In this document: piece by piece, positions 2,584-62,695 of the stretch
Position numbering within the stretch: position 1 is the first letter of the stretch
Layout: each line of letters opens with the position of its first letter
NCBI GenBank assembly: GCA_963668695.2
Contig: CAXXLQ010000004.1
Location: 2,464,001 to 2,528,000 of the forward strand
Direction: 5' to 3'
DNA: 64,000 nt
Origin: Vicinamibacteria bacterium
GTDB taxonomy: Bacteria > Acidobacteriota > Vicinamibacteria > Marinacidobacterales > Marinacidobacteraceae
Position numbers and translations under genes: made by a program
The notes under the pieces: model-generated
Databases searched by the model: none
Seen by the model: the letters and a program-made list of their open reading frames with translations, nothing else
What the model was told of the DNA's origin: nothing

Positions 2584-3053
2584 CAGTCTGTGGCGAAACC
2601 CAGGCGGCCCAGTTCTCCCGGTGGGGGCTCGGCCGGCGATCCATCCCGGCCAAACAGCCTGTGATGAAACCCGCGCGGCGTTCGGCAGGCGATCCATCCC
2701 GGCTGACCGCGTCGCTTCGCGCCGCTCATCGTTGCGTTTCGGTCGGAATACACCCGGGCCAGTTCTCCCGGTGGGGGCTCCTCCCTCACGCGCCTCGTCA
2801 GCCGGGCCCCCACCGGGAGAACTGGCCCCACCGGGAGAACTGGGCCTCGCCGGCCTCGGCGCTCACGCGGGTTCCACCACCGGCTGTTCACCGCGTCGCT
2901 TCGCGCCGCTCATCGTTGCGCTTCGGTCGAAATACACTCGGGCCAGTTCTCCCGGTGGGGGCTCCTCCCTCGCGCGCCTTGTCAGCCGGGTGCCTCCCCC
3001 CCACCGGGAGAACTGGCGCTCTCGGCGCTCACGCCACCTTGTCCACAGGCTGT
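2583..3053. mobile_element. Nested MITE composite (inner copy ~2654..2887 inside an outer copy) with six 20-mer motifs
   Basis: TIRs ACAGTCTGTGG...CCACAGGCTGT with TA on both sides; the left TA plus the first element base form the peptidase stop codon. Confidence 0.8.
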
Positions 3054-3062
3054 TAAGCGGGC

Positions 3063-4423
3063 GTGTCCCCGCATCTCCTCGTCCTCGCGGCCTATTCGGT
3101 CCTGCTGATCGCGGTCGGCTGGTACGTCTCCCGGAGGGGGCGTTCCGCCGAAAGCTTCTTCGTGGCCGGACGCCGCCTGCCGGCGCGGCTGATCTTCGCG
3201 ACCGTGCTCGCCGCGAACATCGGGGCCGGCTCGACCATCGGCGCGGCCGCGCTCGGCTACGAGTACGGGCTCGCCGCCTTCTGGTGGGTGGGGGCCGCGG
3301 GCATCGGCACCCTGCTCCTCGCCGTCTGGCTGGGCCCCCGGATGTGGCGGGTCGCCACCGAAGCCCGGCTCCGCACGGTGGGCGACTTCCTCGAGCTGCG
3401 CTACGGCGTTGCGGTCCGGATCGCACTCACCGGTCTCCTGCTCGTCGCCACCCTCTTCGTGCTTGCGGCGCAGTTGCTCGCCGCCGGATTGCTCATCGAA
3501 GGCGCCGCGGGGATACCGCTGCCGTTCGCCATCCTCGCCGCGGCGGTGGTGATGACCGCCTACTTCGCGGTGGGGGGGCTCCAGAGTGCGGCATCGGTGA
3601 ACTTCGTGCAGCTCGGGGTCTTGCTCCTGGGACTCGGCCTCGCCGTGCCTTACGCCCTGTCCGCCGCCGGGGGCGGGGCCGGAATCCGCGGCGCCTCGGA
3701 GAGGGCGCGTTCGACATCTTCGGGAATGCGTCCCTCGCCTTCGGCTACACCGCGCTATTGATCCCGGCCTTCCTGGTGTCCCCCGGCATCCTGCAGAAGC
3801 TCTTCGGGGCCCGCAGTGAGAGCGCCGTGCGCCGCGGCCTCACCGCCGCCGGCGCCGTGTTGCTCGTTTTCGCCGCGGTCCCGCCGCTCCTCGGCGCCGC
3901 GGCAGCGGTCCTCCATCCCGAACTGGCAAGCGCCGACGCCGCCCTTCCGGCGCTCCTCGTCGAGTCGCTTCCCCTCTGGCTCGGAACCCTCGGGGTGGCG
4001 GCGCTTTTCTCGGCCGAGGTGTCGAGCGCCGACGCGGTGCTCTTCATGCTTTCCACCTCGCTCTCCCGGGATGTCTTCCACCGCTTCCTGCGGCCGGGAG
4101 CCGACGACCGCACCGTCCTGCGGGTGGCGCGCGCGGCCGCGGTGGTTTCCGGCCTTGTCGGTGTCGTGATCGCGATCCTCGCGCAGAGCGTGATCGCTTC
4201 CCTCACGGTCTTCTACTCGATCCTGGGCGTCTCTCTCTTCGTGCCGGTGGTGGTCGGCCTCCACCGCTTCCGGCCCCCCGCCCGCGCCATCCTGAGCGGC
4301 GCGGCGGTCGGGGTTTTGGTGTTCTGGTTGGCTCCGGAGAACGGGATTCTCCCGCCGCCGCTACTCGGCATCGCGGCCTCCGGGGTGGTGGTGTTTCTCC
4401 ACCTGCGGACCGCAAGGCCCTGA
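3063..4423 (+). CDS. Sodium:solute symporter (SSS family), frameshift near 3695
   Basis: FFVAGRRL, ANIGAGST and many TM segments in two overlapping frames; adding one C to a C-run restores the frame. Confidence 0.85.
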
Positions 4424-4503
4424 TTCGCCGGGAAGGCGCGGCGCGGTAGCGCCTGCCGGCCGGACGCCCCGGAGGCGGCGGGTGGGGGCACAATCCGCGG
4501 GCC

Positions 4504-5649
4504 ATGGCTCCCGACCGCGCCGGCCCGGACCTCGCGTCCGCCGATGTCGTCATCGTGGGAGCCGGTCTCGCCGGGCTGCAGTGCGCCCGTCTGGTTGGCG
4601 AGGCGGGGCTCGACGTCGTCCTGCTGGATCGGAAGGAAGACCTGCGCGACCGCGTGCATACCACCGGGATCTTCGTGCGGAAGTCCCTCGAAGACTTCGA
4701 TCTGCCGCCGTCCTGCCTCGGTCCGCCGATCCGCCGGGTCGCGCTCTATTCCCCGGCGCGGCGCGCGCTCCGGCTGTCGAGCCGGCGCGACGAGTTCCGG
4801 GTGGGGCGGATGGGGACGCTCTACCGCGAACTTCTCGATCGCTGTCTTGCGGCGGGCGTTCGGTTTCTCCCCGGCACGCGCTATCGCGGGTCCCGTCCGG
4901 CCGGAACAGGCCTCGTGGTCGAGCTGGAGCGCGACGGAAAGGGGCTGAATATCGAGACGCGCCTTCTCGTAGGGGCCGACGGCGCGAACTCCCAGGTGGC
5001 TCGTGACCTCGGGCTCGATTCCAACTCGGACTGGCTGGTGGGCCTGGAGTGGGTGTACACCGGGGTGCCCCTCTCGGGACCGGCGACCCTGCACTGTTTT
5101 CTGGATCCCCGGATCGCGCCGGGCTACCTCGCCTGGGTTGTCCAGGATGGCGAGGAGACGCACGTGGGGGTCGGCGGCTATCCCGGCCGCTTCCGGCCCC
5201 AGACCGCGCTCGCGGAATTCGCGGGCAGCCTGGAGAGCCTCTTCGCCCTCGACCGGGGCCGGCTCGTGGAGCAGCGCGGGGGCCGGATCCCGGTCAACGG
5301 GGTGTTGCGCCGGATCGGCGGCGACCGCGGCCTGCTCGTCGGCGACGCGGCGGGGGCGGTTTCACCGCTGACCGCTGGCGGCTTCGACGCCTGCCTCCGG
5401 CTTTCCCGGCGTGCCGCAGGCGTCATCGTGCGCCGTTTCGAGACCGGCGACCCGAGTGTGCTGGCGACCTATTCGGGGGCGAGGCTCCGGTCTCGATTTC
5501 TCTCCCGGCGCTGGATGCGCCTCCTGCTCGCGGGAATCCGGAGTCCGGCGGTGATGGAGGCGGTGTGCCTGATGTTGCGGTGCCCCCCGTTCCGCAACCT
5601 CGCGTGGCAGGTCTTCTTTCGCCGGCGCTCCTTCCCCGACCTGGAGTGA
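4504..5649 (+). CDS. FAD-dependent oxidoreductase, geranylgeranyl reductase-like
   Basis: GAGLAG Rossmann motif, LVGADG, LVGDAAG..SPLTAGG. Confidence 0.8.
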   Translation: MAPDRAGPDLASADVVIVGAGLAGLQCARLVGEAGLDVVLLDRKEDLRDRVHTTGIFVRKSLEDFDLPPSCLGPPIRRVALYSPARRALRLSSRRDEFRVGRMGTLYRELLDRCLAAGVRFLPGTRYRGSRPAGTGLVVELERDGKGLNIETRLLVGADGANSQVARDLGLDSNSDWLVGLEWVYTGVPLSGPATLHCFLDPRIAPGYLAWVVQDGEETHVGVGGYPGRFRPQTALAEFAGSLESLFALDRGRLVEQRGGRIPVNGVLRRIGGDRGLLVGDAAGAVSPLTAGGFDACLRLSRRAAGVIVRRFETGDPSVLATYSGARLRSRFLSRRWMRLLLAGIRSPAVMEAVCLMLRCPPFRNLAWQVFFRRRSFPDLE

Positions 5650-5657
5650 TGCCCGCC

Positions 5658-5760
5658 AGCGGGCCCCCACCGGGAGAACTGGCCACCGGTCTCCGGCCGG
5701 CATCGCGCGGGAGCGCGAAACCAGCGCCGATGATGCTGCGCCATGCCAACGTGAGGGCCC
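5658..5760. repeat. REP-like repeat family 2 with a 20-mer at 5663..5682
   Basis: CCGGCATCGCGCGGGAGCGCGAAACCAGC.CCGATGA..CTGCGCCATGCCAAC is shared with the copies at 56453..56690. Confidence 0.7.
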
Positions 5761-5907
5761 ACCACCTTTCAGTCCCGGAGGGCGTGTCCGCTCGCTGCTC
5801 CCGCTCCCTCGGCCTCATCGGCACCGCCTGCCGGAGGCTGGCGCGACGCGTGACGCTTACCGTCCTGATGGCGTCGAGTCCGACGTCCCACGTCGGGGCG
5901 GAACCCG

Positions 5908-6174: not shown

Positions 6175-6250
6175 CTGCGAAGCCTCTGTCGAAGTCGGCC
6201 CGAGGTCAAATCACGGGGCACGAATTGTCCCGGGCGATAATGCGCGCGCT

Positions 6251-8321: not shown

Positions 8322-8375
8322 TGCGGTGCCGGTCTGAATGCCCCCACCGGGAGAACCGGCCGGCGATCCCTGGCC
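8322..8375. repeat. Partial REP-like family 2 copy with a 20-mer variant at 8340..8359
   Basis: Reverse complement reads GGGATCGCCGGC[CGGTTCTCCCGGTGGGGGC]ATTCAGACCGGCAC. Confidence 0.65.
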
Positions 8376-12183: not shown

Positions 12184-15100
12184 TCATGGCAGGCTCCGGA
12201 TCTGGACGACTTCGTCGAGGGCGGCAGCGAATCCGGCCCGGGCCTTCGTTCGCGCGTGATTCGCGGGCCGCGGACCGCATACCGGCAGGTAGTCGCAGTA
12301 GTCACACACCCGGTAGGAAACCCCGGGGTTCGGCAGTGCGGGAAAGCGTCCATTGCGGGTCGCCCGGTCGAGGCCGTCGACGAACGCCTCGAAGACGGCC
12401 CGGGATTCCTCGCTGGCGGCGTCCACCACGGTCTCCAGGTAGGTCCCCCGAATGGTCGCGTAGTAGAGCCGGCCGGACGCCGTAGGCGTTCCGGAAAGGG
12501 CCTCGTAGGCGAGCGCGTAGAGGAGCGGCTGCAGGGCGCGCCCACCGAAGAGGATTCGTTGCTGCCGGGTGGTTTCGATCGACGCCCGCCCCGTCTTGTA
12601 GTCGGTGATCTGGATCGCTCCGTCCGCGAGTCGTTCCACCACGTCAATCGAACCGTGGAGCCGGAGCCCGCCGGGAAGCACCGCCGCCTCGGTGCGGCTG
12701 GCCGGGTCGGCAGGCTGCCTCGCCCCCATCCCGAACGTGAGTTCGTTCGCGAGCGGCATGCGTCCGGTAGCCGCGTAGCGCTGCAGGAAGCCCCTCAAAT
12801 CGCCGAGCAGTCCGTCCATCTGATCCTGCCAGATGCGGTCGATGGCGGGGGCTACCCGCTCCCTCACCTCTTCCTCGACCCGCCAGAAGACCGTCTCCAG
12901 CATCGCGAAAGCCTCACTCAGCCGCCCCTCGGCCAGCGGAGCGAGGTTTCGCTCCCGGAATTCGCGACCCAGGTGGAAGAACACGTCGTGCAGAAGCGAA
13001 CCCCGCGTCAACGGATCGAGATGAAGAAGGGCCTCCGGACGCTCGATGGGGCGTAGGCGGACGATGTTCTTGAGGAAGAACTGGTAAGGACACGACGCGT
13101 AAGCCTCGAGGCCGGTCACGGAAAAGGAGCGGTTCCCGGGCCGGTGTCGTTCCAGCGCCGCGAGCGCTTCCGGGTCGGGGTTCAGGAAGCCGTCGGGGGA
13201 CTGCCATTTCCACTGCTGGCGCATGTACTCCTGGCGGAGGGAGCGCGCCACCGCCGGGTCGGAGAGCAGGTAGGCCGCGGTCCCGGCGCCGGCGCCGCCT
13301 GCTTCCGGTCTTCCGAGAGCTCCAGCGACCCGCCCGAGATCGAACTCGCGGCGATCGATCGCGTAGGACGGGTTGCGTGGCGCGCGGATCCCGCGGACTA
13401 CCTGGCTCTCCTTGCCTGCCTGGGCTCGGATTTCGGCGAGGGTGGGGATCTTCCCGAGGCCCGCCCGGAAGGCTTCCGCGAGGTAGTACGACGGAACCTG
13501 GGGGCGGCCTTCGACCAGGTTCAGCGAGGAATAGCTGAGGATGAGTTTCCGGGTGGCCGCTCCCACCGCAATCCGGAGCCGGAGACGCTCGCGCTCGGCG
13601 AGATCGCTGCGCACCGGCAGGTCCGCCGAGATCGCGCCGCGTTGCCGGTCGAGGAGCATGGGGTCTTCGCGGATCACGCGAGGGAACGCCCGCTCGGAAA
13701 GGCCGGGCACCGCCACCACGTCGAAGGTGAGGCCGCGCGCCGCATCGATGGGGCCCACCCACACCCGGCCGTAGCGGTCGCCCCGGGAGCGGGTCACCAC
13801 TTCAGCGAGGCGCCGCGCCAGACTCTCCCGCACCTCGTCGAGGGTGACTTCGTTCACGTCTCGCATCGGGTCCGTCTCGGCGAGGCATTCGAGGACCCCC
13901 TCGGGGTGGAGCAGCGCGGCGCGGGCCAACTCCGCGAGCTGGCGCGTCCATTCGTAAAAGCCCGCGTGGGGGGTGGGGAAAGCGGCCAGCCGATGCAGGA
14001 TGGGCAGGGCCGTCTCGGTCAGCCGGCGAAGATCCCGCCGGCGCCGGCGCACCGCTTCCCGCCTCGATTCATCCGATTCCGCCTCTTCGTCCCGCTGGAG
14101 TTGTCGCTCGAAACGGGCAAGCCGCCCTTCCCAGCGGTCAAGACCCCCGATCACCTCGGAATCCAGGATGAGTCGTTCCCACCTCCGGGGAGCCACAAAA
14201 CCCGTGTTTTCCTCCGCCTCCGTCCCCCGGGCGCCGGCCCCGATGTCTTCCGTCGGACTGGCTTCCGTCGGACTGGCTTCCGTCCGACTGGCCGGCGTCT
14301 CTCCGAGGGAGAGGTATTCCGCGAATCGCGTGGCGGAGAGGCCCTCCCGGGCGCAGTCGAGGAGCACCAGGAAGGCGCGCCCCGCGGGGTGTGGCCGCCG
14401 GGCGCCGGCCTCGAAGAAGGCGGGGATTTCTGCGCGTTCGAATGCTTCCTGGAATGCCGAGGCCTGGTTCGCCGGCTCGGGAAGCAGGACCGCCATCCGG
14501 TCGAAGGGGATCCCGTCGGCCGCCTCGGCCAGGAAGGCGCGCGCGTGCTCGATCGCCTCCGCCGCCGTCCCCGGCGCGGCGACTACCGAGAGGCCCCGGC
14601 GCCCAGTACCCGGATCCGGCCGCCGGGTGGCGAACAGGTGGCGTTGCGCGGAGGCGACGGCATCGTCTTGCGAGGTGTCGCCAAAGTCCCTTTCGGCAGC
14701 TGGTAGCGGTAGGGCTCCCAGCGCCAGCGGCTCCCAGCGGCAGGGCTCCCAGCGGCAGGGTTCCCGGCGCCACGGCTCCCGGCGGCATGGTTCCCGGCGC
14801 CAGGGTTCCCGGCGCCACGGCTCCCGGCGGCATGGTTCCCGGCAGGGGCGGCGTTCCCAGCGGCAGGGCTCCCAGCGGCAGGGCTCCCAGCGCCAGGGCG
14901 GCTTCCTCGGTGTGCCGGTCTCCCTCGGGCAGGGTCAGGAACACCTCGGATGCTGCCGCTGCCAGGGCTGCGGCGAAACGGCGGGAAGCCTGGTCCACGA
15001 GCGGCACGTCCAGGAGCAGCAACGGCAGCCCGACCGGAAGGCCGGCGCCGTTCGTGATCGCTCGTCGAGCGGACTCGAACGTTTCGGCCCGGTCCGCCAG

Positions 15101-15589
15101 CTTCACTTCGGCCAGCGTCTCCAAGTAGGCGCGGTAGAGCCTTCCGAGCGACTCCTCCGCGGCTCCGACCTCGTCAGCGGTGACGCCGGCCAACCGCAGT
15201 TCATCGAACGTCGAGGCAAGCCGGACCGCAAGCCCGGGACCCTGGGCGGCCTCTTCGAAGCGTCCGAGCTCGCCGGCCCGCCGGGCCCGGTGGATGATCC
15301 GGACCACGGCGGCGAGCCGCGCGGCGGGGGTGAGCGTCCTGAGTTCCCGCGCCGCCAGCTCCGGCCGGGCCAACTGCTGCGCGAGGACGAACAGCCCGAA
15401 GCGAAACGCGCCGAAGAGCCCGCCCTGATGGCCTCGCCCCTCCGCCGCCTCATGCACCAGTCGGTCCGCCGCGTGGCGGGACGCTCCCACCACCAGGAAC
15501 GGGTTTCCCGCGCCCAGCCCCTCGAGAAACCGAACGGCCGCCGCGGTCCGCACGGCGGCCCGCGGACTCTTGATGAATCGCCTCTGCAC
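12184..15589 (-). CDS. addB: AddB-like PD-(D/E)XK nuclease subunit; frameshift near 14690
   Basis: SVTGLEAYASCPYQFF, GSIDVV..TDYKTG, C-terminal CDYCDYLPVC Fe-S cysteines; lies directly upstream of addA. Confidence 0.78.
14713..14895. repeat. 15-bp tandem repeat tract inside addB (PLGAL/PGTMP-type units)
   Basis: Units GCTCCCAGCGGCAGG / TTCCCGGCGCCACGG repeated about 12 times. Confidence 0.85.
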
Positions 15590-15596
15590 CGCGCCC

Positions 15597-15602
15597 ACTA
15601 TA
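15597..15602 (-). promoter_or_regulatory. -10 box TATAGT, 7 nt before the addB GTG (leaderless-type)
   Basis: Minus strand reads TATAGT gggcgcg GTG. Confidence 0.45.
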
Positions 15603-15646
15603 GAACCGAACCCCGACAAATTCCGTCGTGCCGGGACGTGGGGGTG

Positions 15647-16684
15647 TCAGGCGCGGGGAAGCCCGCGGGTTGCAGCACGAAAGAGCAGCTTGAGGCCGAA
15701 GTCCCAGCGGGCCATTACGCTCGTGAGAACAAGGGCGGCGCCCGCGCTCAGCCGGGACACCCGCACGTTCCGGCCGAGCCGGAAGCTGCGCTCGCTGTGC
15801 ACGCGCCGGAGCGCCAGAACGGCCAATCCGAGCGCCCAGAGCAGATGCCGCCGGATACCGGCTTCCCGAGCCGGAATGAGCAGGATGAATTCGAGGGCGT
15901 GCCCGAGGTGGCGCCGGGTGATCGCCACCAGCCGCGACAGTCCTTCGTCGAAACCGGGGCCGCCGCCCCCGGCCGAGAGATCGCGCAGATCGAAGCCCGC
16001 GGCGTCGAAGACGTCGCGGGGGAGCCAGCAGGAGCCCCTCGCCCAGTCATCCCACACATCCTTGAGGATGTTGGCCATCTGGAGTCCCTGGGCGTGCGAT
16101 GTCGCGAGCGCCAGCAACTCCTCGCGGCGCCGCTCGACTTCCGCGGAGTAATCGCCGAACAGGTCCACGAGCAACTCGCCGACCACCCCGGCGGCGAAAT
16201 AGCAGTAGCGGTCGAGCTGGCGCATGTCCTCGAGGCCGACGGAGGGCGTGTCCTGCTGGAACTCGACCATGCCGTTCGACATGGTCCGGATGCAGCGTTC
16301 GATGGCCGTTCGCTGCCTCGGACGAAACCCTGCCGTCACGCGGACGATGCGAGCCGTGTTGGCCGCGAGGTCGTGCTCCGGCTCCGGGGTCGCCGGCGAC
16401 AGCGCCGCCGAGAGGTCGCGTGCGAAGGATGCGGCGTCGTCCCGGCCGGACACCACCTCGACGAAGCGCTCCCAGAGCGACTGCTTCCGGTGGAGGGAAA
16501 GTTCAGGTTCGTCTTCGATGGTGTCCGCAATCCGGCACAGCAGATAGGCGTTTCCCACCACCTCCCGCAGGCCCTCGGGCAGCACGGGAATCGTGAGCGC
16601 GTAGGTTCGCGAAACGGACAGGAGAATCCTTGTCTGATAGGCGAGATCACCCGCGCTTCCGCTGCGCGACGGATCCTTGTTCAT
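15647..16684 (-). CDS. Squalene/phytoene synthase family protein (squalene synthase-like)
   Basis: VSRTYAL, YLLCRIADTIEDE, RYCYFAAGVVGELL, GLQMANILKDVWDD. Confidence 0.88.
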   Translation of the reverse strand: MNKDPSRSGSAGDLAYQTRILLSVSRTYALTIPVLPEGLREVVGNAYLLCRIADTIEDEPELSLHRKQSLWERFVEVVSGRDDAASFARDLSAALSPATPEPEHDLAANTARIVRVTAGFRPRQRTAIERCIRTMSNGMVEFQQDTPSVGLEDMRQLDRYCYFAAGVVGELLVDLFGDYSAEVERRREELLALATSHAQGLQMANILKDVWDDWARGSCWLPRDVFDAAGFDLRDLSAGGGGPGFDEGLSRLVAITRRHLGHALEFILLIPAREAGIRRHLLWALGLAVLALRRVHSERSFRLGRNVRVSRLSAGAALVLTSVMARWDFGLKLLFRAATRGLPRA

Positions 16685-16708
16685 CGGGAGGCCCCGGGAA
16701 GAGCTGTA

Positions 16709-17196
16709 ACAGTCGGTGGACAAAGTGACGTGAGTACCGAGACCGGTGAGGCCCAGTTCTCCCGGTGGGGGCGAGGCGCCCGGCTGACAAGGCGCGCGAG
16801 GGAGGAGCCCCCACCGGGAGAACTGGCCCGAGTGTATTTCGACCGAAGCGCAACGATGAGCGACGCGGTGAACAGCCGGTGGTGGAACCCGCGTGAGCGC
16901 CGAGGCCGGCCAGTTCTCCCGGTGGGGGCGAGGCCCAGTTCTCCCGGTGGGGCCAGTCCTCCCGGTGGGGGCCCGGCTGACAAGGCGCGTGAGAGAGGAG
17001 CCCCCACCGGGAGAACTGGCCCGGGTGTATTTCGACCGAAGCGCAACGATGAGCGGCGCGCAGCGACGCGGTTCAGCCGGGATGGATCGCCGGCCGAGCC
17101 CCCACCGGGAGAACTGGGCCGCGTGGGTTTCATCGCCGGTTGTTTGGCCGGGATGCATCGCCGGTCGGATGCCGCGTGACTTCGTCCACAGGCTGT
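16709..17196. mobile_element. Nested MITE composite, inverted sister of 2583..3053, with seven 20-mers
   Basis: Same junctions (CCCGGCCAAACA and CGGCTGTTCACCGCGTCG on the reverse strand) and the same TIRs. Confidence 0.8.
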
Positions 17197-17239
17197 TCAG
17201 GTTTCGCTCCCTGCCGTCCAGCTCGGGGACGGACTACTA

Positions 17240-17493
17240 ACAGCCTGTGGTGGAACCCGGGTGAGCGCCGAGACCGGCCAGTTCTCCCGGTGGGGGCGAG
17301 GCCCAGTTCTCCCGGTGGGGGTCCGGCTGACAAAGCGCGTGAGGGAGGAGCCCCCACCGGGAGAACCGGCCCGGGTGTATTTCGACCGAAACGCAACGAA
17401 GAACGGAGCGAAGCGGAGTGGTTCAGCCGGGATGGATCGCCGGGCGAGCCCCCACCGGGAGAACTGGGCCGCCTGGGTTTCACCACAGGTTGT
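17240..17493. mobile_element. MITE with four 20-mers
   Basis: TA|ACAGCCTGTGG...CCACAGGTTGT|TA. Confidence 0.82.
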
Positions 17494-17495
17494 TA

Positions 17496-17663
17496 AGTCT
17501 GCGTGTCGTCGGAATGCACTTTGGGGGGCAGGCGGTAGGAGATCAGGGGATCGCGCAGGCGCGAGTTGTCCACGAAGGTGTATCGGTCCACTTTCGCCTT
17601 CGCCTCCCACGCCGGAACCAGACCGTCCTCGACGGAAGTCCCGTCGGCCCCGCGACCCTCCTC
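17496..17663 (-). pseudogene. 3' remnant of an MpaB/DUF2236-like oxygenase paralog between two MITEs
   Basis: TFVDNSRLRDPLISYRLPPKVHSDDTQT resembles QLLQISVYDDDGVSYKMPDHVKTAQQSPW at the end of 18176..19033. Confidence 0.45.
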
Positions 17664-17665
17664 TA

Positions 17666-17920
17666 GCAGCCGGTGGATAAAGTGGTGTGAGCGCCGAGAG
17701 CGGCCAGTCCTCCCGGTGGGGGCGAGGCCCAGTTCTCCCGGTGGGGGTCCGGCTGACAAGGCGCGCGAGGGAGGAGCCCCCACCGGGAGAACTGGCCCGA
17801 GTGTATTTCGACCGAAGCGCAACGATAGAGCGACGCGAAACGGAGTGTTTCAGCCGGGATGCATCGCCGGTCGAGCCCCCACCGGGAGAACTGGGCCGCA
17901 TGACTTTGTCCACAGGCTGC
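17666..17920. mobile_element. MITE with four 20-mers
   Basis: TA|GCAGCCGGTGG...CCACAGGCTGC|TA. Confidence 0.82.
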
Positions 17921-17995
17921 TAAGCGGCCCCGGCCCGGCGTTCGGGCGACCCGTGCGGCGACCGTTCTACCGCGGGGGACTGTCGACCGGGCTTA

Positions 17996-18176
17996 ACAGC
18001 CTGTGGCAAAACCCACGCGGCGTTCGGCCGGCGATGCATCCCGCCCGAACCACTCCGCTTCGCTCCGTTCTTCGTTGCGTTTCGGTCGAAATACACCCGG
18101 TATTCCTCCCTCACGCGCCTCGTCGGACGGGCGCCTCACCGACCTCGGCGCTCACGTGAGTTTCACCACAGGCTGT
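17996..18176. mobile_element. MITE, empty form (no 20-mer)
   Basis: TA|ACAGCCTGTGG...CCACAGGCTGT|TA; the right end supplies the TAA of the oxygenase gene. Confidence 0.85.
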
Positions 18177-41099: not shown

Positions 41100-42413
41100 A
41101 TGGGTAGCGAAGAGCTGTCGCCTTCTAGCGCCAAGCTGCCGCCGCCGGGCATCCACTACCGTCGCGGTCTCGGGCTGCGCAAGCAGATCATCGAGCCGCT
41201 GACCGAGGACTACCGCGGCCATCTGGTCCGCTTCGCGCGCGACCACGACTACCGGATTCGGGCCGGGGAGATCCGGTTCCTGATCGCCCACGAGTTCGGC
41301 TTCTGCTACGGCGTGGACCGGGCGATCGAGTATGCCTACGAGGCGCGTCTCCGTTTCCCCGACCGGCAGATCTTCCTGACCGGGGAGATCATCCACAACC
41401 CCTACGTGAATCGCCGGCTCTCCGAATTCGGGATCCTGTTCCTGCAGGATGGGTCTCCGCCCGAGGCGAAGTTCGAAGATGTCGGCCCCGAGGCCGTGGT
41501 GCTGCTGCCTGCCTTCGGGGTGGCCACCAGCGAACTGGACGTGCTGCGTCGAAAGGGCGCCATTCTCGTGGACACCACCTGCGGCTCGGTCATGAACGTC
41601 TGGAAGAACGTGGGCCGTTACCAGCGCGATGGATTCACCTCGGTGGTCCACGGCAAGTACGCCCACGAGGAGACGAAGGCCACGATTTCCCGCGCCGGAA
41701 AGTACCTGGTCGTCCGCGACATGGCCGAGGCGCTGGAGGTCTGCCGCTACATCGAGGCCGGCCGGAAGCCGGCCGGCGAGACGGATGCCGGAGCCACGGG
41801 AACGAATGGAGGCGCGATGCTCCCCGACCGGGGAGCGTTCCTCGATCGCTTTGCTCCCGCCTGCTCGCCGGGGTTCGACCCGGATCTGGACCTGGGCCGA
41901 ATCGGCCTCGCGAATCAGACCACGGTGCTCGCGAGCGAGTCGCTCGAGATCGCCGCCGTGCTTCGCGACTCCATGGCGCGCCGCTACGGGGAGGCCGATG
42001 TCGCCGGCCGGTTCCGTTCCTTTGACACGATCTGCAGCGCCACCCAGGAGCGTCAGGACGCCGTCCTCGAACTGCTCCAGGAAGACCTCGCTCTCGTGCT
42101 GGTGGTCGGCGGTTTCAACTCCTCGAACACCGCCAATCTGGCTGCGATCTGCGAACGGAAGTTCCCGAGCTACCACATCTCGGGGCCCGAGTGCCTGCTG
42201 TCCGGCGACGAGATTCGTTGCCGGCCCGCGCCGGGCTCGGGGCAGGGGACGGAGCCGATAGTACGGCGGGGCTGGTTGCCGGAGGGAGCCCTCCGGATCG
42301 GAGTTACTTCGGGAGCCTCGACCCCGGACGTGATGGTCCACCGGACAATGCTCCGGGTGCTGGGTTTCCGCGGGATGACCGAAGCCGACTGCCGCCCTGA
42401 CGAATTGTTTTAG
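41100..42413 (+). CDS. ispH: 4-hydroxy-3-methylbut-2-enyl diphosphate reductase
   Basis: FGFCYGVDRA, EIIHN, DTTC, DTICSATQERQ, SSNT, SGASTP. Confidence 0.93.
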   Translation: MGSEELSPSSAKLPPPGIHYRRGLGLRKQIIEPLTEDYRGHLVRFARDHDYRIRAGEIRFLIAHEFGFCYGVDRAIEYAYEARLRFPDRQIFLTGEIIHNPYVNRRLSEFGILFLQDGSPPEAKFEDVGPEAVVLLPAFGVATSELDVLRRKGAILVDTTCGSVMNVWKNVGRYQRDGFTSVVHGKYAHEETKATISRAGKYLVVRDMAEALEVCRYIEAGRKPAGETDAGATGTNGGAMLPDRGAFLDRFAPACSPGFDPDLDLGRIGLANQTTVLASESLEIAAVLRDSMARRYGEADVAGRFRSFDTICSATQERQDAVLELLQEDLALVLVVGGFNSSNTANLAAICERKFPSYHISGPECLLSGDEIRCRPAPGSGQGTEPIVRRGWLPEGALRIGVTSGASTPDVMVHRTMLRVLGFRGMTEADCRPDELF

Positions 42414-42611
42414 TAGCCTGTGGATAGAGTGGCGTGAGCGCCGAGAGCGGTGAGGCGCCCGGCTGACAAGGCGCGCGAGGGAGGAATACCGGGTGTATTC
42501 GGACCGAGGCGCAACGATGAGCGACGCGAAGCGGCGCGGTTCAGCCGGGATGGATCGCCGCTCGAGCCCCCACCGGGAGAACTGGGCCGCGCCACTCTGT
42601 CCACCGGCTGC
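42413..42611. mobile_element. MITE with one 20-mer (42566..42585)
   Basis: TA|GTAGCCTGTGG...CCACCGGCTGC|TA; left end forms the ispH TAG. Confidence 0.82.
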
Positions 42612-42666
42612 TAGCGCGGCTTCGGCGAGCGAACGCCGCACCGGATCGTCGTCCGCCTGATACCGA

Positions 42667-51756: not shown

Positions 51757-51937
51757 GCAGTCTGTGGACAACGTCGCGGGAGGGCCGAGAGCGGCGAGGC
51801 GCCCGGCTGACAAGGCGCGCGAGGGAGGAATACCGCGTGTATTTCGACCGAAGCGCAACGATGAGCGACGCGAAGCGGCGCGGTCCAGGCGGGATGCATC
51901 GCCGGTCGAACACCCCGCGACGTTGTTCACGGGCTGC
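51757..51937. mobile_element. MITE, empty form
   Basis: GCAGTCTGTGG...CACGGGCTGC|TA; interior matches 17996..18176 reversed. Confidence 0.8.
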
Positions 51938-56306: not shown

Positions 56307-56690
56307 GGGAACGCCGGCCAGTTGCCGTGAAACTGCCGTCGCGCCGGGATGCCGACAGTTTGGATGGTGCGGGCCGCAAGGGAACGCTGGGCGGTTGCTG
56401 TGAAAATGCAGTCGCGCCGGGACCCCGACAACCCGGATGGCGCGCAGGCAAGGGAACGCCGGCCAGTCCTCCCGGTGGGGGCCTTCAGACCGGCACCGCG
56501 CGGGAGCGCGAAACCAGCACCGATGAGGTTGCGCCATGGCAAGTTGAGGGCCGGGTCTTTTTCATGACGGGCGAGGGTGTGCAGGTCCACCCGATCATGC
56601 GGGTTTCTCCCGGTGGGGCCCTTCAGACCGGCATCGCGCGGGAGCGCGAAACCAGCACCGATGACGCTGCGCTATGCCAACTCGAGTTCC
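56307..56690. repeat. REP-like cluster: two ~73-bp tandem units plus two family 2 copies with 20-mers
   Basis: GGGAACGC starts at 56307, 56380 and 56452; 20-mers at 56463..56482 and degenerate near 56601..56620. Confidence 0.7.
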
Positions 56691-58260: not shown

Positions 58261-58288
58261 TCGTCAGGTCGAGGGCAAGTCCAGCCCC

Positions 58289-58579: not shown

Positions 58580-58612
58580 CCGGGGTGTGTGGACACCACG
58601 GTCGTTACGGAC
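58569..58612 (+). pseudogene. 5' stub of a PIN toxin
   Basis: Overlapping ATG (MTGDR), then out-of-frame VDTTVV; similarity stops there. Confidence 0.35.
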
Positions 58613-58844: not shown

Positions 58845-59596
58845 CTACAGGTATTTCAGCAGCACGAATTGCGCGCGCCGTCTGGTGTCATCGGTCAGGT
58901 CAAGTGTCAGCAGGCCGACGATAATCTTGAGGCTCTCGATGGAGAGTGGTTGGTCGCGGGTAATGAGCGCTTCGGCCAGCCGACTACCGTCTCGATACAG
59001 CGTGACCGTCACGCCAGCGGGATCGAAGCTCCATCCTGCGACAGACATGGTCAGGTTGTCGAAAACGCTCTGGACCGCGCTCGTCCCGTGAACATGGATT
59101 GACTGGCCGATAGCGTTGACTTCCTCGCTCTACGCGATGGAATGTGGCTTGTTGAGCCCTGAAAAATTGCGTTCCGCAGATCGCCCTGCAAATTGTTGAC
59201 GAGGACGTATCCCTGCAGATGAGGACCGCTCTGCACGAGGATGCGGCTCGGGTCTGCTGGATCGAGACTCGCGGAGAGCTGACGGTCCGCGACAGGAACG
59301 CTCTCCATAGTGACTTCCCTCTCAACCGTGTCGCCACGGATCAACTGAGCCGAGACGACAGGAATCTGTGCCCCGCCATCGTGCACCGCCGCCCAGCTGG
59401 GCGACGGAGGTGGAAGGAGCTTTACATCGTATGGATTCGAGGCGTTCCGCACTTCCAGGATCATCAGCAGGATCCCGCCGGCTCCGGCAGCAACGAGAAA
59501 TGTCAAGGCCAGCCGTGGCGACTTTTCCCAAAATCGCCATGCAAGCAGTGCCAGAAAACCGGCGAAACCAAACTGAGCGATGTCAGCAATTTCCAT
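58845..59596 (-). CDS. Hypothetical membrane-anchored protein, frameshift near 59050, lower GC
   Basis: RBS AAGGA; two N-terminal TM segments; continues in ORF 58845..59048. Confidence 0.45.
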
Positions 59597-59908
59597 CGTC
59601 GAAACCACCGTCCTTAGGATTGGAGAGGGGTGCGCCCACCTGAAAGCGGAGGGCATCAGGCGGAAGCATAGGAACTCTCGCGGAGGCGAGGCCGGTGCGG
59701 AGATCCCGACGGGAGGGAACTTCGGCGTTCGCGTTGTGCTGCACACTCCGCCCGGCATTTTGAGCAGCTAGAGCAGCTTCTTCCGAATGGTCTGCGGTAC
59801 GGGAGTTCGCAGCCCCCTCGGCCCGCGATGCGGGTCTGGAGACCGGCGGTCCCCGAGCTGCCGGACGGTGACGCCGATCGGCGGTCGCGCGATACCCTTT
59901 CGCGCGCT

Positions 59909-61171
59909 ATGAGCTCCCCCAGAAATGCCGCCGCTCCGGCGTCGGGTATCTGGTTTCTGGGAGGGGCCCGGACCCCCATGACCCCCTTTCTCGGGGATCT
60001 GGCGGGGCTCAGTGCGGTGGAGCTCGGAGCGGAGGCGGCCCGGGGGGCGCTAGCCCGCTCCGGCGTGGCGCCCGAGCAGGTGGACCACGTGGTCGTCGGC
60101 AACGCCCAGCAGACCACGAGCGACGCGATCTACGGAGCGCGCCACGTCGGTCTCCGGGCGGGAGTTCCGGATGCGGTGCCGGCGCTGACGGTGAACCGGC
60201 TCTGCGGCTCCGGGATCCAGGCGGTGATCTCGGCGGCGCACCAGATGCTCGCCGGCGAAGCGGAGATCGTGCTCGCCGGCGGGATGGAATCCATGAGCCA
60301 GGCGCCCTTTGTGGTGCGGGGAGCGCGTTTGGGCCTCCGGCTCGGCCACGGGAAGCTCGAAGACACCCTGGTGGCGGCGCTTACCGACGGCCAATGCGGG
60401 CTTTCCATGTCCGACACCGCCGAAAACGTGGCGGAGCGCACCGGGGTCACCCGGGAGGACTCGGACGCGTACGCGTTCCGGAGCCAGCAGACGGCGGACC
60501 GGGCCTACCGCGCCGGTTCGCACGCCGAGGAGATCGTCCCGGTCACCGTGAAGAGCAGGAAGGGCGAGAACGTCGTTTCGGAAGACGGCCACCGGCGGCC
60601 CGGGACCACGCTGGAAGATCTCGCCCGGCTCCGACCCGCGTTTCGCAGGGACGGCCTCGTCACCGCCGGGAATGCGAGCGGCATCGTGGACGGCGCCGCG
60701 GCTCTGGTGGTGGCTGGGGAGGACACCGAGGCGGTCCGTTTCGGATCTCCGCTCGGGCGGATCGTTTCCTGGGCGACCGCGGGCGTGCCGCCCGAGATCA
60801 TGGGGCTTGGGCCGGTTCCGGCCAGCCGGGCGGCGCTCGAGGCAGCGGGCCTCCGGCTGGAAGACATGGACCGGATCGAGGTGAACGAGGCTTTCGCCCC
60901 GCAGTACCTCGCGGTGGAACGGGAACTCGGACTGGATCGCGAGCGGGTGAACGTGAACGGCGGGGCGATCGCGCTGGGGCATCCCCTCGGTGCGACCGGG
61001 ACCCGCCTGCTGCTCACCCTGCTTCTCGAACTGCGTCGCTCCGGGGGCCGCTACGGCCTCGCCACCGCCTGCATCGGAGGCGGCCAGGGCATCGCCATGA
61101 TCGTCGAGGCGGCGGGGAACGGCGCCGGCAACGGCGCTGGCAACGGCACCGGCAACGGAAGGGCGGCGTGA
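59909..61171 (+). CDS. Acetyl-CoA C-acyltransferase (thiolase)
   Basis: NRLCGSG, NEAFA, GHPLGATG, CIGGGQG. Confidence 0.95.
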   Translation: MSSPRNAAAPASGIWFLGGARTPMTPFLGDLAGLSAVELGAEAARGALARSGVAPEQVDHVVVGNAQQTTSDAIYGARHVGLRAGVPDAVPALTVNRLCGSGIQAVISAAHQMLAGEAEIVLAGGMESMSQAPFVVRGARLGLRLGHGKLEDTLVAALTDGQCGLSMSDTAENVAERTGVTREDSDAYAFRSQQTADRAYRAGSHAEEIVPVTVKSRKGENVVSEDGHRRPGTTLEDLARLRPAFRRDGLVTAGNASGIVDGAAALVVAGEDTEAVRFGSPLGRIVSWATAGVPPEIMGLGPVPASRAALEAAGLRLEDMDRIEVNEAFAPQYLAVERELGLDRERVNVNGGAIALGHPLGATGTRLLLTLLLELRRSGGRYGLATACIGGGQGIAMIVEAAGNGAGNGAGNGTGNGRAA

Positions 61172-61959
61172 CCGCTCATCCCAACCTCGCGGTCGAGCGC
61201 CGGGAGACCGCCAAGGGGCGGTGCTTCGCGCTCATCACGGTGAACCGGCCCAAGGCCCTCAACGCCCTGAACCGGGAGACGCTCGAGGCCCTCGCGGACG
61301 CCTTCGAGCACGCGGGGAATGACGCCGACGCACTCGGGATCGTGCTCACCGGCGCGGGCGACCGGGCCTTCGTCGCCGGGGCGGACATCTCCGAGCTCCG
61401 GGATCTGACAACGGAGTCGGCGTTCCAGGTCGCCCGGCGGGGCCAGGAAGTCATGCGCACCATCGAGGGGACGCGGAAGCCGGTCATCGCCGCGATCGGC
61501 GGTTTCGCGCTCGGCGGCGGGCTGGAACTCGCGCTCGCCTGTCACCTGCGGGTTGCCGGGCCGAAGGCGAAGCTCGGGCTCCCCGAAGTGAAGCTCGGCG
61601 TCATCCCGGGATACGGCGGCACCCAGCGGCTCCCGCGCCTCATCGGACGGGGCCGGGCCCTCCGGATGATCCTCACCGGCGATCCGGTGGGGAGCGAGGA
61701 GGCGCTGGCGGCGGGCCTGGTGGATGCGGTCCACGAGGACGCCGTGGAAGGAGCGGCGGCGCTTCTCGACCGGGTGCTGGCGAACGGACCGCTGGCGGTG
61801 CGCAACGCGCTCCTCGCGGTGGACGCGGGGCTTTCGGGTCTCGAGGACGGCCTGCTGGCCGAGGCGTCGCTTTTTTCGTCGCTCGCCGGCACCGACGACA
61901 TGCGGGAGGGGCTGGGCGCGTTCCTGGAGAAGCGCCCGCCGCATTTCCGTGGCGCCTGA
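61168..61959 (+). CDS. Enoyl-CoA hydratase (crotonase)
   Basis: AFVAGADI, GGGLELA, PEVKLG..PGYGGTQRL. Confidence 0.93.
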   Translation: MTAHPNLAVERRETAKGRCFALITVNRPKALNALNRETLEALADAFEHAGNDADALGIVLTGAGDRAFVAGADISELRDLTTESAFQVARRGQEVMRTIEGTRKPVIAAIGGFALGGGLELALACHLRVAGPKAKLGLPEVKLGVIPGYGGTQRLPRLIGRGRALRMILTGDPVGSEEALAAGLVDAVHEDAVEGAAALLDRVLANGPLAVRNALLAVDAGLSGLEDGLLAEASLFSSLAGTDDMREGLGAFLEKRPPHFRGA

Positions 61960-62479
61960 GTCCGGGCCCGGCGGGGAGGGCGCGCCCGACCGCGGCGGCC
62001 CGCTCGCCGGGTTCCACGTCGGCATCGTGGTTTCGGAGCGGGACGAACCCTCGCTTCGCCTGGCCGCGGCCGCCGGGCGCTGGCTCCGGGCCGAGGGGGC
62101 CGATGTCTCCCGCTACCCGGCGCCCGCCGCCTTCGAGGTAGCCCAGTTGGCCGGCTGGCTGGCCGAATCCGGCCGGGTGGACGGGATCGTGGCCTGCGCC
62201 TCGATCGTGCGCGGGGAGACTTCCCACGACCGCCATCTCGCCGAAGCGGTGACCGGCGGGCTCCTCGAAATCGGGATCCGGACCCGGATTCCCGTGGGCA
62301 ACGCGGTCCTTACGGTGGACACGAGCGCGCAGGCCGACGCGCGTTCCGGGGGAGCCAAGGGAAACCGGGGCGAAGACGCGGCACGCGCGGTCGCCGGGCT
62401 GCTGCGCGCCCGGAAGCGTCTTGGAGAGCGCCCCGGCCTCGACCTCGGGCCGGTCTCCGGCTTCCGCGGGGAAGGCTAG
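61949..62479 (+). CDS. ribH: 6,7-dimethyl-8-ribityllumazine synthase
   Basis: PAAFEV, IVRGETSH, GNRGEDAA; directly upstream of nusB. Confidence 0.85.
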   Translation: MAPESGPGGEGAPDRGGPLAGFHVGIVVSERDEPSLRLAAAAGRWLRAEGADVSRYPAPAAFEVAQLAGWLAESGRVDGIVACASIVRGETSHDRHLAEAVTGGLLEIGIRTRIPVGNAVLTVDTSAQADARSGGAKGNRGEDAARAVAGLLRARKRLGERPGLDLGPVSGFRGEG

Positions 62480-62695
62480 CAACCGGTGGACGAAGTCACG
62501 CGGCCCAGTTCTCCCGGTGGGGGCTCGAGCGCCGATTCATCCCGGCTGAACCGCGCGGCTGCGCCTCGCTCGTCGTTGCGCTTCGGTCGAAATACACCCG
62601 GTATTCCTCCCTCGCGCGCCTTGTCAGCCGGGCGCCTCGCCCCCACCGGGAGACTGGTCGCTCTCGGCGCTCGCGCCACTTCGCCCACCGGCTGC
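62479..62695. mobile_element. MITE with two 20-mers
   Basis: TA|GCAACCGGTGG...CCACCGGCTGC; forms the ribH TAG and ends 3 nt before the nusB ATG. Confidence 0.82.

Follow-up and report, generated by a model that had tools for sequence, protein, structure and literature searches.

How does a sequence of about 20 nt come to lie, almost unchanged and at the same precise positions, in copy after copy of separate repeat families? The question is raised by a 64,000-nt stretch of genome, the window hereafter, from a lineage of Acidobacteriota (Vicinamibacteria) of the sponge-associated type. An initial annotation of the window had described about 28 copies of a fixed 20-nt insert, distributed over a MITE and a supposedly unrelated REP-like repeat, and had suggested that the insert was added from a template or spread by gene conversion.

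An invariant unit and its host repeats

We refer to the insert as U and define it by its 18-nt core, CCCCACCGGGAGAACTGG; including flanking bases, the block measures 20-21 nt. When the window was scanned with a 20-mer allowing up to two mismatches, 26 matches were obtained, whereas 100 dinucleotide-preserving shuffles of the window gave none (0 expected). All 26 lie where the initial annotation had placed them, but two of its copies are not complete units: the one at 62639 is a one-base-deleted variant, and the one near 56601 is the first 14 nt of U fused to another repeat, R2. The four occupied MITE positions (sites A, C, D and E), the REP-like contexts, the two empty MITEs and both head-to-tail doublets were recovered as described (Table 1). 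The same applies to the pair said to differ by 19 nt (ggcctcg/ccggcctcgg near 2843 versus the filled copy at 16901..16935).

Table 1. Copies of U and of its host repeats in the window; letters A to E denote insertion sites in the MITE.
Position	Strand	Feature	Basis or remark
2582..3058 (approximate)	+	Composite of MITE copies and fragments with five U sites (2609, 2759, 2806, 2943, 2997)	BLAST pieces
2609..2628	-	U, site A	20-mer scan, 0 mismatches; flanks read
2759..2778	-	U, site C	20-mer scan, flanks
2806..2843	+	U head-to-tail doublet, period 18, site D	adjoining site E empty (gcctcgccggcc)
2943..2962	-	U, site C	20-mer scan, flanks
2997..3016	+	U, E-type junction (cctc/C-U/cgctctcgg)	20-mer scan, flanks
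5663..5682	+	U adjoining REP-like hairpin	ccaccggtctccggccggcatcgc
8340..8359	+	U, T>C variant, tip of REP-like hairpin	gtgccggtctgaatg/U/ccggcgatcc
16706..17199 (approximate)	-	Composite MITE cluster, seven U units	16753(-) E, 16807(+) C, 16910(-) E, 16935(-)/16953(-) D doublet (16935..16972), 17000(+) C, 17098(+) A
17235..17497	-	MITE copy, four sites filled	E 17278, D 17303, C 17350, A 17448
17664..17925	-	MITE copy, four sites filled	E 17704, D 17729, C 17776, A 17875
17996..18176	+	Empty MITE copy, 181 nt, used as reference	folds as long hairpin, z -3.8/-5.8
42412..42614	-	MITE copy, U only at A (42566..42585)	C, D, E empty
51757..51937	-	Empty MITE copy	
56463..56482	-	U, A>G variant, tip of REP-like hairpin	
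56483..56617	-	R2 repeat	5' end, first 14 nt of U (CCCCACCGGGAGAA), joined to ACCCGCATGATCGGG...
62478..62697	+	MITE copy, U at A (62505..62524, -)	one-base-deleted 17-nt variant GGGAGACTGG at E (62639..62657, +)

Across the 4.1-Mb genome, 1,631 units were found (1,288 exact, 278 with one and 65 with two mismatches). Most of these (1,393, or 85%) are carried by the 181-nt MITE family, 183 stand beside REP-like hairpins, and 55 lie elsewhere. Near-identical duplicates, which make up about 264 kb of the assembly, inflate the raw counts, and 1,528 units remain when they are removed. U is equally frequent on both strands and is extragenic almost throughout. The earlier statement that no copy lies in coding sequence holds in the window; the sole verified in-frame copy in the genome was found in an AcrB-family gene, which is present twice in the assembly.

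Most of the changes seen in the 20-mer scan fall at two positions: 14, with A>G in 173 copies, and 17, with T>C in 26. Variation within U is 2- to 30-fold lower than in the bases next to it, and the factor differs from site to site. For sites A and C, mismatches per site amount to 0.2-0.4% in U and to 3-8% in the neighbouring 20 nt; for site E, the ratio is about 2. Its edges are sharp, since across 171 independent contexts the information content drops away outside GC...SCC; these GC and SCC flanks are likewise constrained.

U itself has neither inverted ends nor a predicted hairpin (folds of -1.4 and -1.9 kcal/mol, z +0.70 and +0.63, with 153 and 150 of 200 shuffles folding as well or better). 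A normal transposon could be neither this short nor this unstructured. In a test for halves of U at the ends of a larger element, 10-mer counts along U were flat (1,269-1,684). Orphan right halves number 23-25 and mostly lie within unrelated sequence; the left 14 nt occur in about 30 R2 repeats, whose other end is not followed by the usual flank of U. Among the orphans, the 17-nt variant is found almost only at site E; 44 copies of that site show the shorter length. Tandem copies are also localised: there are 151 same-strand pairs spaced exactly 18 nt, and 138 of 140 two-unit arrays, together with all four longer ones, belong to two site-D flank clusters. U contains no stop codon in any frame. 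The cluster at 16.7-17.9 kb lies upstream of a squalene/phytoene-synthase (SQS_PSY) gene, whose domain begins at residue 182 of the open frame.

Filled and empty sites within and between genomes

At any one site, a filled copy is longer than an empty one by exactly 18 or 19 nt. MITE lengths are quantised (about 181, 199, 217, 235, 252 and 271 nt), and the gap totals are 0, 18, 19, 36, 37 and 55. Using anchors outside U, we counted 196 empty and 193 filled copies of site A, and 274 and 287, respectively, of site C, with almost no intermediate lengths. Site B was empty in 340 copies (lengths 19-20) and had the +18 length in 59; in 8 of the latter, U occupies a neighbouring position. Genome-wide, five MITE sites (A-E) accept U, and they are filled in any combination. 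U comes and goes as one discrete block; the description of a discrete insert that has colonised separate repeat families is borne out.

The junctions are stereotyped. The inserted block is GC plus U, sometimes with a further C, and replaces 0-3 bases of the target; each site has its own fixed junction and orientation. A paralogous empty site was available for 76 of the 171 contexts, with changes from empty to filled such as AAC/GCC to AGC[U]GCC, AAT/ACC to AGC[U]CCC, GGC/GCC to GGC[U]GCC and GAC/CG to GGC[U]CCG. The +19 site reads, genome-wide, C(A/G/C)CCG to CGC[U]CCG. Targets are GC-rich, of the form N-(A/G)-N / (C/G)-C-N. Neither target duplications at any tabulated junction nor direct repeats at the boundaries of U were found. 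The host MITE, by comparison, has inverted ends of about 28 nt.

Beyond 3 nt, the presence of U is independent of the sequence that surrounds it. There, r2 between U and backbone variants of the MITE is at most 0.14, compared to 0.93-1.0 for the adjacent 1-3 nt at sites A and C. On a MITE tree, which was built from 181 nt with the junction columns dropped and is therefore weak, the minimum number of changes per filled copies was 15/16 for A, 51/55 for C, 40/48 for D and 34/40 for E, close to the values for shuffled labels; site B was mildly clustered (17 changes for 24 filled copies). The backbone variants themselves lose mutual linkage within 10-30 nt, and the random placement of U on the tree may thus reflect a generally mosaic MITE family.

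U is present in all 15 other genomes of the genus, with 8 to 776 copies compared to 1,566 in the genome studied here (G000), and in two of three other genera of the family. The exact 18-mer was detected in 17 of 30 related genomes searched. It also occurs in many separately deposited genome records from different projects, and contigs from four public runs of four studies carry the repeats. Hence, an assembly or polishing artefact, for which no support was found although the duplicates mentioned above exist, is exceedingly improbable. In most genomes, the number of units goes with that of MITE cores, at a ratio of about 2-3 to one; G010, G007 and G012, however, have 32-95 MITE cores and only 8-15 units.

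Sequence comparisons point to continuing turnover of U, between species as well as between near-identical duplicates. The assembly duplicates (98.6-99.7% identical) contain 31 indels of at least 8 nt, four of which are exact 18-nt indels of U. In aligned orthologous blocks of G000 and the closest relative, G001, six of 26 G000 units are found in G000 only and two units in G001 only; in 320 kb aligned with G004, which involve 47 units, each genome has 10 of its own. The in-frame copy in the AcrB-type gene is shared by G000 and G001, and the gene is empty in the other 10 of 12 genus genomes. Judged from this distribution, the filled state there is derived, i.e., a gain; polarity is read from this one site, as the G000/G001 differences are unpolarised for want of G004 cover at the places concerned.

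Could U instead have been ancestral in the MITE and REP families, with the empty copies being deletions? An exact 18-nt loss does look like a gain in pairwise comparison, and most differences are unpolarised. An ancestral presence is, however, contradicted at the AcrB-type gene, and the boundaries of U have no direct repeats that could drive exact deletion. Next to U, filled and empty copies do not have the same bases (TAT against G..GC), which means that an empty copy is not simply a filled one minus 18 nt. G010, with 95 MITE cores but 15 units, and the free combination of filled sites also speak against this reading, and we regard it as very unlikely.

Selection on a functional site, bound by protein or RNA or serving as a DNA-uptake-type signal, would be another way to keep U constant; selection or biased retention would then account for its abundance, and recombination, not an insertion machinery, for the spread of copies. 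Indeed, the 18-mer is exact across three genera, whereas the identity of a host gene within the one genus compared is 82-87% among the more distant genomes (91-96% in the three closest). At sites A and C, U varies far less than the sequence around it; this, together with the constrained flanks, the equal use of both strands and the mostly extragenic location, fits as well. Yet U behaves as an all-or-none block without build-up by point changes, near-misses are few, and copy numbers range from 8 to 1,566 inside one genus. The units are largely MITE-borne, one sits within the coding sequence of a transporter, and arrival at about 170 different contexts would still require an insertion step. We therefore consider this explanation unlikely.

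Candidate enzymes and a possible route of transfer

The initial annotation rightly noted that no candidate enzyme is encoded in the window and proposed a reverse transcriptase or a HUH/RAYT-type enzyme acting in trans. Addition by a reverse transcriptase or from an RNA template is not supported: no RVT_1 match was found in the genome. A RAYT was likewise absent from G000 by Pfam, NCBIfam and tblastn and from G004 by Pfam and NCBIfam. Among genus relatives, in contrast, the RAYT equivalog NF047646 (96.8 bits, cut-off 80) was detected in 9 of the 11 searched with that model, and Pfam Y1_Tnp in 13 of 15. On either side of the RAYT genes in these relatives lie arrays of the REP hairpin in which U also occurs, and U was present at one of eight such loci inspected. 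The genus has a true REP-RAYT system, and the host hairpin, previously called unrelated, is its cognate REP.

These findings make it conceivable that U, as a by-product of the REP system or a module within it, was moved as single-stranded DNA by the RAYT (HUH-Y1), which would cut it out of, and paste it into, hairpin loops. U is often located at the 3' edge of the loop, adjoining the CCGGC arm, and in G016, from another genus, all seven copies occupy a single hairpin-like context. HUH enzymes such as those of IS200/IS605 act by exact gain and loss without target duplication, as observed for U. However, the RAYT-less G000 and G004 have the highest counts among the genomes searched and the lineage-specific differences described above, while G010 and G012 possess a RAYT and carry only 15 and 8 units. 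In addition, U lacks a hairpin of its own and a GTAG or CGTC tag, and several sites (A, B and C) are outside loops. Movement of U by the RAYT is thus doubtful.

The explanation we favour, and hold to be moderately probable, is that U belongs to the small dispersed repeat kind, as a very small element, neither autonomous nor palindromic, which arrives by short-patch transfer, spreads among paralogues and is multiplied by its host MITE. On first arrival, an existing copy would be the source of a piece of about 20-23 nt, which is copied or pasted into a break and lines up there through microhomology of 1-3 nt at either edge. The genome encodes Ku, so end-joining is available. Spread over hundreds of paralogous MITE and REP copies could involve further transfers of such very short tracts, or else insertion at specific sites time and again, and amplification of the MITE would further raise the copy number. 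The invariance of U across genera suggests a putative sequence-specific recognising factor, protein or nucleic acid. Because no enzyme, template or master copy for U was found in the genome, we infer the mechanistic core of this explanation.

Gene conversion among paralogous copies is a possible means of spread, but it leaves the first arrival at new sites unexplained. Ordinary RecA conversion tracts would also leave flank linkage, and none was seen. Identical junctions in hundreds of copies are unlike the usual imprecise end-joining and call for deterministic microhomology or homology-guided transfer. Rather improbable, in our estimation, is a dedicated sequence-specific micro-insertion system, other than a known transposase, RAYT or reverse transcriptase, that writes U and removes it exactly. 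One option would be patch synthesis from an oligonucleotide or RNA template, with nicks in GC-rich hairpins as priming sites and alignment via the 2-3 nt GC and SCC edges. If such a system existed, U would rank as the smallest autonomous-looking DNA mobility unit so far observed in bacteria, and as a natural counterpart to short templated insertion.

We found no explanation in the literature for the movement of repeats of about 20 nt, and this lineage is an unusually clean case in which to study it: one invariant unit, hundreds of filled/empty pairs with stereotyped junctions, sister genomes with 8 to about 1,570 copies and with or without RAYT, and polymorphism at 99% identity. The movement of U is therefore open to comparative genomics (gene content versus units per MITE, genomes from long-read metagenomes) and, in principle, to biochemistry. 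For annotation, it should be noted that the stop-free U keeps long false ORFs open through repeat clusters and can add six residues to real proteins, as in the AcrB-type gene.

Comparison with known repeats

Neisseria dRS3 is the attachment repeat of an IS110-family element. We rejected such a role for U: the one intact IS110-family element of G000, whose ends are unlike U, interrupts the REP hairpin (GGAGGTC/TATACC ... GAAGGTC/CGGCGTTCC) and not U. REPs have been described as attachment sites for the IS110-family ISPpu9 (PMC8450116). Nor is U a MITE, as it lacks inverted ends and duplications at the tabulated junctions.

DNA uptake sequences (DUS/USS) arise by point change, have roughly even density in coding and non-coding DNA, and are recognised by the uptake machinery; the block indels, MITE-bound distribution and variable copy number within the genus speak against this assignment. 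Rickettsia palindromic elements are selfish and can, like U, sit in frame in genes, but they are palindromic and about 100-150 nt long, compared to 18 nt and one verified coding case in the genome for U. The extra-PU motifs of E. coli BIMEs, e.g., the IHF-binding L motif, are short, conserved and non-palindromic and lie beside or between some REP hairpins; U resembles them in being non-palindromic and, in some copies, beside REP hairpins. To our knowledge, they do not invade other repeat families or coding genes, nor vary as exact blocks at many positions.

With REP/REPIN sequences and their RAYT, described as short, extragenic, present in hundreds of copies, free of target duplication and vertically persistent (PMC2817692, PMC3337134, 10.1101/2022.05.22.493013), U shares small size (20-40 nt for a REP), extragenic location, more than 100 copies, absence of target duplication and vertical persistence within a lineage, and it dwells in REP hairpins. 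REPs are reported to carry a conserved GTAG or CGTC at one end (PMC3733652); neither is present on either strand of U or its conserved flanks. U was rejected as a REP: it has no palindrome or stem-loop, it is, unlike a REP, most abundant in a genome without RAYT, and in relatives it is the other hairpin repeat that borders the RAYT genes.

The closest known kind is represented by the cyanobacterial small dispersed repeats (SDRs). Elhai and colleagues reportedly found in 2008 that SDRs measure 21-27 nt, are nested in minitransposons and, in the case of SDR4-6, share a secondary structure; we know of no mechanism for their movement. U is unrelated to them in sequence, belongs to a different phylum, is slightly below the reported size range and has no predicted secondary structure. 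SDRs have been characterised as "some 20 bp long" elements that "might be mobile" (PMC2884548), and the 2008 description (Genome Res 18:1484) is cited in PMC3116915. The citing passages considered here treat the elements as only possibly mobile, and none of them names an enzyme. In these accounts, SDR1-8 of Nostoc and related cyanobacteria are, like U, about 20 nt long, non-coding, dispersed and of high copy number, are judged mobile by their presence or absence in otherwise homologous sequence, and are precisely inserted into other repeats. U shows both of the latter features, being present or absent in homologous sequence and embedded in other repeats at precise positions; in addition, it overwrites target bases and is kept as the same unit across genera.

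Sequence, genomic context and distribution of the unit

The 20-nt insert that the initial annotation had listed along the window was recovered where it had been placed, with 26 matches (up to two mismatches) and none in 100 shuffled sequences. The window corresponds to G000:C4:2464001-2528000. In the source genome (G000; 4.10 Mb in four contigs, C1 to C4, 67% G+C) we defined its conserved core as an 18-nt unit, CCCCACCGGGAGAACTGG, here called U, which occurs 1,631 times: 1,288 copies are exact, 278 carry one mismatch and 65 carry two. The information content is about 2 bits over all 18 nt and about 1.1-1.4 bits at the preceding GC and at the next two bases (S, C), and falls to background further out. 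The same profile was obtained when each of 171 distinct flank contexts was weighted once. No strand or replichore bias was found in G000, where the strands are used equally; in the related genome G018, exact counts were 108 forward and 112 reverse.

Some 264 kb of the assembly occurs twice, at 98.6-99.7% identity (see table), which probably lies behind the 9.3% "contamination" figure; the duplicates may be strain variants kept in the assembly or real duplications. With these regions taken out, the non-redundant count of U is 1,528.

Most copies are embedded in other repeats. Flanks matching the MITE, the main host repeat, were found for 1,393 of the 1,631 copies, and 183 lie beside the signature of a REP-like hairpin; the remaining 55 were classed as "other". 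Many of these are visibly MITE ends or REP variants, and about 10-15 are in unique DNA. The MITE is 181 nt long, with inverted ends of about 28 nt (ACAGCCTGTGG...) and a long hairpin fold, and about 600 MITE cores are present in G000. It is bordered by TA or TTAA-like bases. It holds U at five main positions (sites A-E), with a fixed orientation at each, and at rarer neighbouring ones. The window holds examples of sites A, C, D and E, three REP contexts, two empty MITEs (lacking U), one 17-nt variant and one partial unit. No known RNA family was found in the window at gathering thresholds.

The repeat cluster at 16.7-17.9 kb is intergenic; in the open frame that overlaps it, a squalene/phytoene-synthase domain begins at residue 182, downstream of the repeats. 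Both U and the MITE are stop-free in several frames, so repeat clusters lengthen stop-to-stop ORFs by hundreds of codons and can easily mislead gene callers in a genome so rich in G+C. Many kilobase-scale short-tandem-repeat arrays in G000 are also open in several frames.

Coordinates of repeats, extended reading frames, duplicated regions and the IS110-family element
Feature	Location	Strand	Remarks
Empty MITE copy	window 17996..18176		
Empty MITE copy	window 51757..51937		
Stop-to-stop ORF lengthened by repeats	window 13973..17179	+	one of several similar
Stop-to-stop ORF lengthened by repeats	window 15647..17158	-	one of several similar
R2 repeat	window 56483..56617	-	34 copies in G000, e.g. 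C4:413406, C4:902941
Intact IS110-family element	G000:C4:482107-483886		outside window; DEDD_Tnp_IS110 + Transposase_20
Tandem-repeat arrays	G000:C4:574312-576071, 975842-979037, 1574056-1575357, 2329554-2330693, 2554250-2555880, 3551688-3552700		and others
Duplicated regions	C1 and C3 vs C4:304-421 kb and C4:3505-3538 kb		
Duplicated regions	C4:13-148 kb vs C4:3783-3914 kb		two ends of C4

When one mismatch was allowed, U was present in all 15 other genomes of the genus that were searched (8-776 copies, compared with 1,566 in G000) and in two of three other genera of the family, and it was found in none of 12 genomes from two sister families. The MITE core has an identical distribution across genomes; three related genomes have more cores than units (95 vs 15 in G010, 49 vs 11 in G007 and 32 vs 8 in G012), a ratio of about 0.2 units per MITE, and in G017 the ratio is zero. 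Exact matches in the public genome collection fell in records titled Acidobacteriota, Vicinamibacteria or "Candidatus Marinacidobacterium", which are metagenome genomes from several projects; single exact matches in other phyla are probably due to chance. Public sequencing runs containing the stretch are labelled as sponge metagenomes or coded organisms. Among short contigs assembled from four of them, the unique parts of the stretch matched without differences in X15 and X16, and no contig spanned the repetitive stretch; these contigs speak neither for nor against U. Given the recurrence of U in independent records, we attach practically no weight to the explanation that it is an artefact.

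Gain and loss of U in exact blocks, with recurrent junctions

U is gained and lost as an exact block. The lengths of full-length MITEs cluster at about 181, 199, 217, 235, 252 and 271 nt, and among 224 copies, 101 had no unit, 52 had one, 34 two, 27 three and 10 four to six. Site occupancy was counted with anchors outside U, so that detection was independent of U itself. Site A was empty in 196 and filled in 193 copies and site C in 274 and 287, respectively. At site B, 340 copies were empty and 59 had the +18 length, eight of the latter carrying U at a neighbouring position. Site E was empty in 129 copies, singly filled in 121 and filled jointly with D in 93. Very few copies had intermediate lengths.

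The sequence of U is strongly constant at the two largest sites: in filled copies of A and C, it departed from the consensus at 0.2-0.4% of positions, compared with 3-8% in the adjacent 20 nt. At filled site E the ratio was only about 2 (3.7% vs 7.2%), and the figure for U at site B is inflated by the eight shifted copies.

A paralogous empty site was found for 76 of the 171 contexts. With the point of insertion marked by a caret, the changes were AAC^GCC to AGC[U]GCC, AAT^ACC to AGC[U]CCC, GGC^GCC to GGC[U]GCC, CGC^CGC to CCC[U]CGC and GAA^CCG to GGC[U]CCG; junctions with a net gain of 19 nt were C(A/G)C^CG to CGC[U]CCG and GAC^CG to GGC[U]CCG. This regular pattern indicates that the arriving piece is GC plus U, at times with one further C. 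It overwrites 0-3 bases, often an A, and leaves no target duplication. The altered neighbouring bases at sites A and C are fully linked to U (r2 0.93-1.0) and are therefore part of the same event. Nearly all head-to-tail doublets (period 18 nt) are at site D; 140 arrays have two units and two have three, and there is a single array each of four and of five units.

These block changes are independent of the flanks. Whether a site was filled or empty showed, in a set of 205 non-redundant full-length MITEs, an r2 of at most 0.14 with each common backbone variant lying over 3 nt from it. On a MITE tree built with the junction columns dropped, which rests on only about 180 columns, site A required a minimum of 15 state changes for 16 filled copies (shuffled mean 15.6), site C 51 for 55 (48.8), site D 40 for 48 (43.4) and site E 34 for 40 (37.0). 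Site B required 17 changes for 24 filled copies (shuffled mean 23.0), a value reached by none of 300 shuffles. U is not simply inherited along with the host MITE copy. As a caveat, the backbone variants themselves also lose linkage within 10-30 nt, their mean r2 falling from 0.27 (1-3 nt) to 0.06 (11-30 nt), so MITE copies are mosaic rather than members of clean subfamilies. Some inheritance with the host is visible: the 17-nt variant GGGAGACTGG is almost always at site E in the orphan listing, 44 site-E copies have the shorter length, and in most genomes the number of units goes with that of MITE cores, at about 2-3 units per MITE.

A gain could be polarised in a gene of the AcrB/AcrD/AcrF family (Pfam E 2e-231), in which U lies in frame and adds PHRENW. 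Orthologues from 12 genomes of the genus were compared. Only two have U, those of G000 and of its nearest relative, G001, which is 96% identical to it across the fragment; ten lack the 18 nt and have the sequence ...GAGCCCG-CG-CGGGAT... or one much like it. This makes the filled state the derived one, two bases having been swapped for GC plus U. A second apparent in-frame unit in a coding region, reading GGPPPGELVR, was seen in G012 at locus L012 (the same sequence as L109), and U is absent at the matching position in the source genome (G000:C4:998180-998577).

Between the 264-kb duplicates there are 31 indels of at least 8 nt; of the five with a length of 18 nt, four are exactly U. Orthologous blocks of G000 and G001 (180 kb, 94.35% identity) cover 26 G000 units; six of these are private to G000, and two units are private to G001. 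Those of G000 and the relative G004 (320 kb, 91.1% identity) cover 47 units; ten units are private to G000 and ten to G004. Turnover of U is continuing. All these differences are unpolarised and would as such also suit an ancestral U that was later deleted, an explanation that we consider very improbable in view of the derived state in the AcrB-type gene. No second recurrent micro-insert was found among the 12-60 nt indels between G000 and G001 or G004, the frequent ones being U or MITE fragments.

Candidate movers and a proposed mechanism

The REP-like hairpin that hosts U, GCCGGTCTGAAGACCGGC with its variants, is the genus's cognate REP. Proteins of about 235 aa in relatives match the NCBIfam "REP-associated tyrosine transposase" (RAYT) equivalog at 96.8 bits (cut-off 80), and their genes sit among arrays of this hairpin. 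The RAYT gene is missing from G000 and G004, and REPs are retained in both. What the initial annotation observed is borne out, and its interpretation holds up in part; it had proposed a templated insert added in trans by a reverse transcriptase or RAYT-type enzyme, or a binding site spread by gene conversion. A RAYT was found in G000 neither by Pfam or NCBIfam nor by tblastn with a relative's protein, and a reverse transcriptase was rejected because G000 has no RVT_1 match. The location of RAYT genes among U-hosting hairpins would suit a model in which RAYT drives U as a single strand. This model is weakened by G000 and G004: of the genomes searched, these two hold the most units and have U differences of their own, although neither has a RAYT. 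We regard the model as unlikely.

Other candidates were also set aside. U is not a REP, as it has no fold and no GTAG or CGTC tag, and not a MITE, as it lacks inverted ends and target duplication. It is probably not the footprint or the joined ends of a known insertion sequence in G000 either: in a search for separated halves of U, only a further repeat family, R2, carried one. The long repeats inspected in a self-comparison of G000 were tandem-repeat arrays, with no multi-copy transposase genes. The sole intact IS110-family element in G000 interrupts a REP hairpin and not U; G004 and another relative, G008, each have multiple copies with more than 90% identity to it, only a fragment is present in G001, more distant homologues occur in the low-U genome G010, and no pattern was seen across genomes. 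For a TnpB-type nuclease, there was only a sub-threshold match.

At the start of R2, 14 nt from the beginning of U (CCCCACCGGGAGAA) are fused to ACCCTCATGATCGGGTCC..., and a REP unit forms its other end. The R2 junction, partly degenerate, is also present in the low-U genomes G010 and G012, and its opposite strand reads AGGAGGA-N6-ATG. R2 may be a relative or progenitor of U.

The reading we favour, with moderate confidence, is short-patch transfer aligned by microhomology, combined with sequence-specific recognition of U. The variable length of 18-21 nt and the GC or C edges that overwrite the target look like a short patch with 1-3 nt of microhomology at both ends, and appear unlike the movement of a fixed-end element. 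The patch could be a copy of a site that already holds U, or a short piece, either excised or synthesised, that is captured at a break; Ku is encoded in G000. Among paralogous MITE or REP copies, the same short-tract process could be guided by local homology, which would yield identical junctions without flank linkage. The constancy of U across genera suggests that some factor recognises its sequence. Constancy would also suit a functional site spread by selection, which we think improbable.

U is a real and unusual finding that lends itself well to comparative work. No description of it, and neither its sequence nor the complement, turned up in the literature searched at the level of titles and abstracts. 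Among described elements, U comes nearest to the "small dispersed repeats" of Nostoc and its relatives. These too are very small and dispersed, sit inside other repeats and are found in some copies of a homologous sequence and not in others. U belongs to another phylum and is unrelated to them in sequence; it is also slightly shorter, and it is unstructured. It further differs from the Nostoc repeats in overwriting flanking bases and in being conserved across genera.
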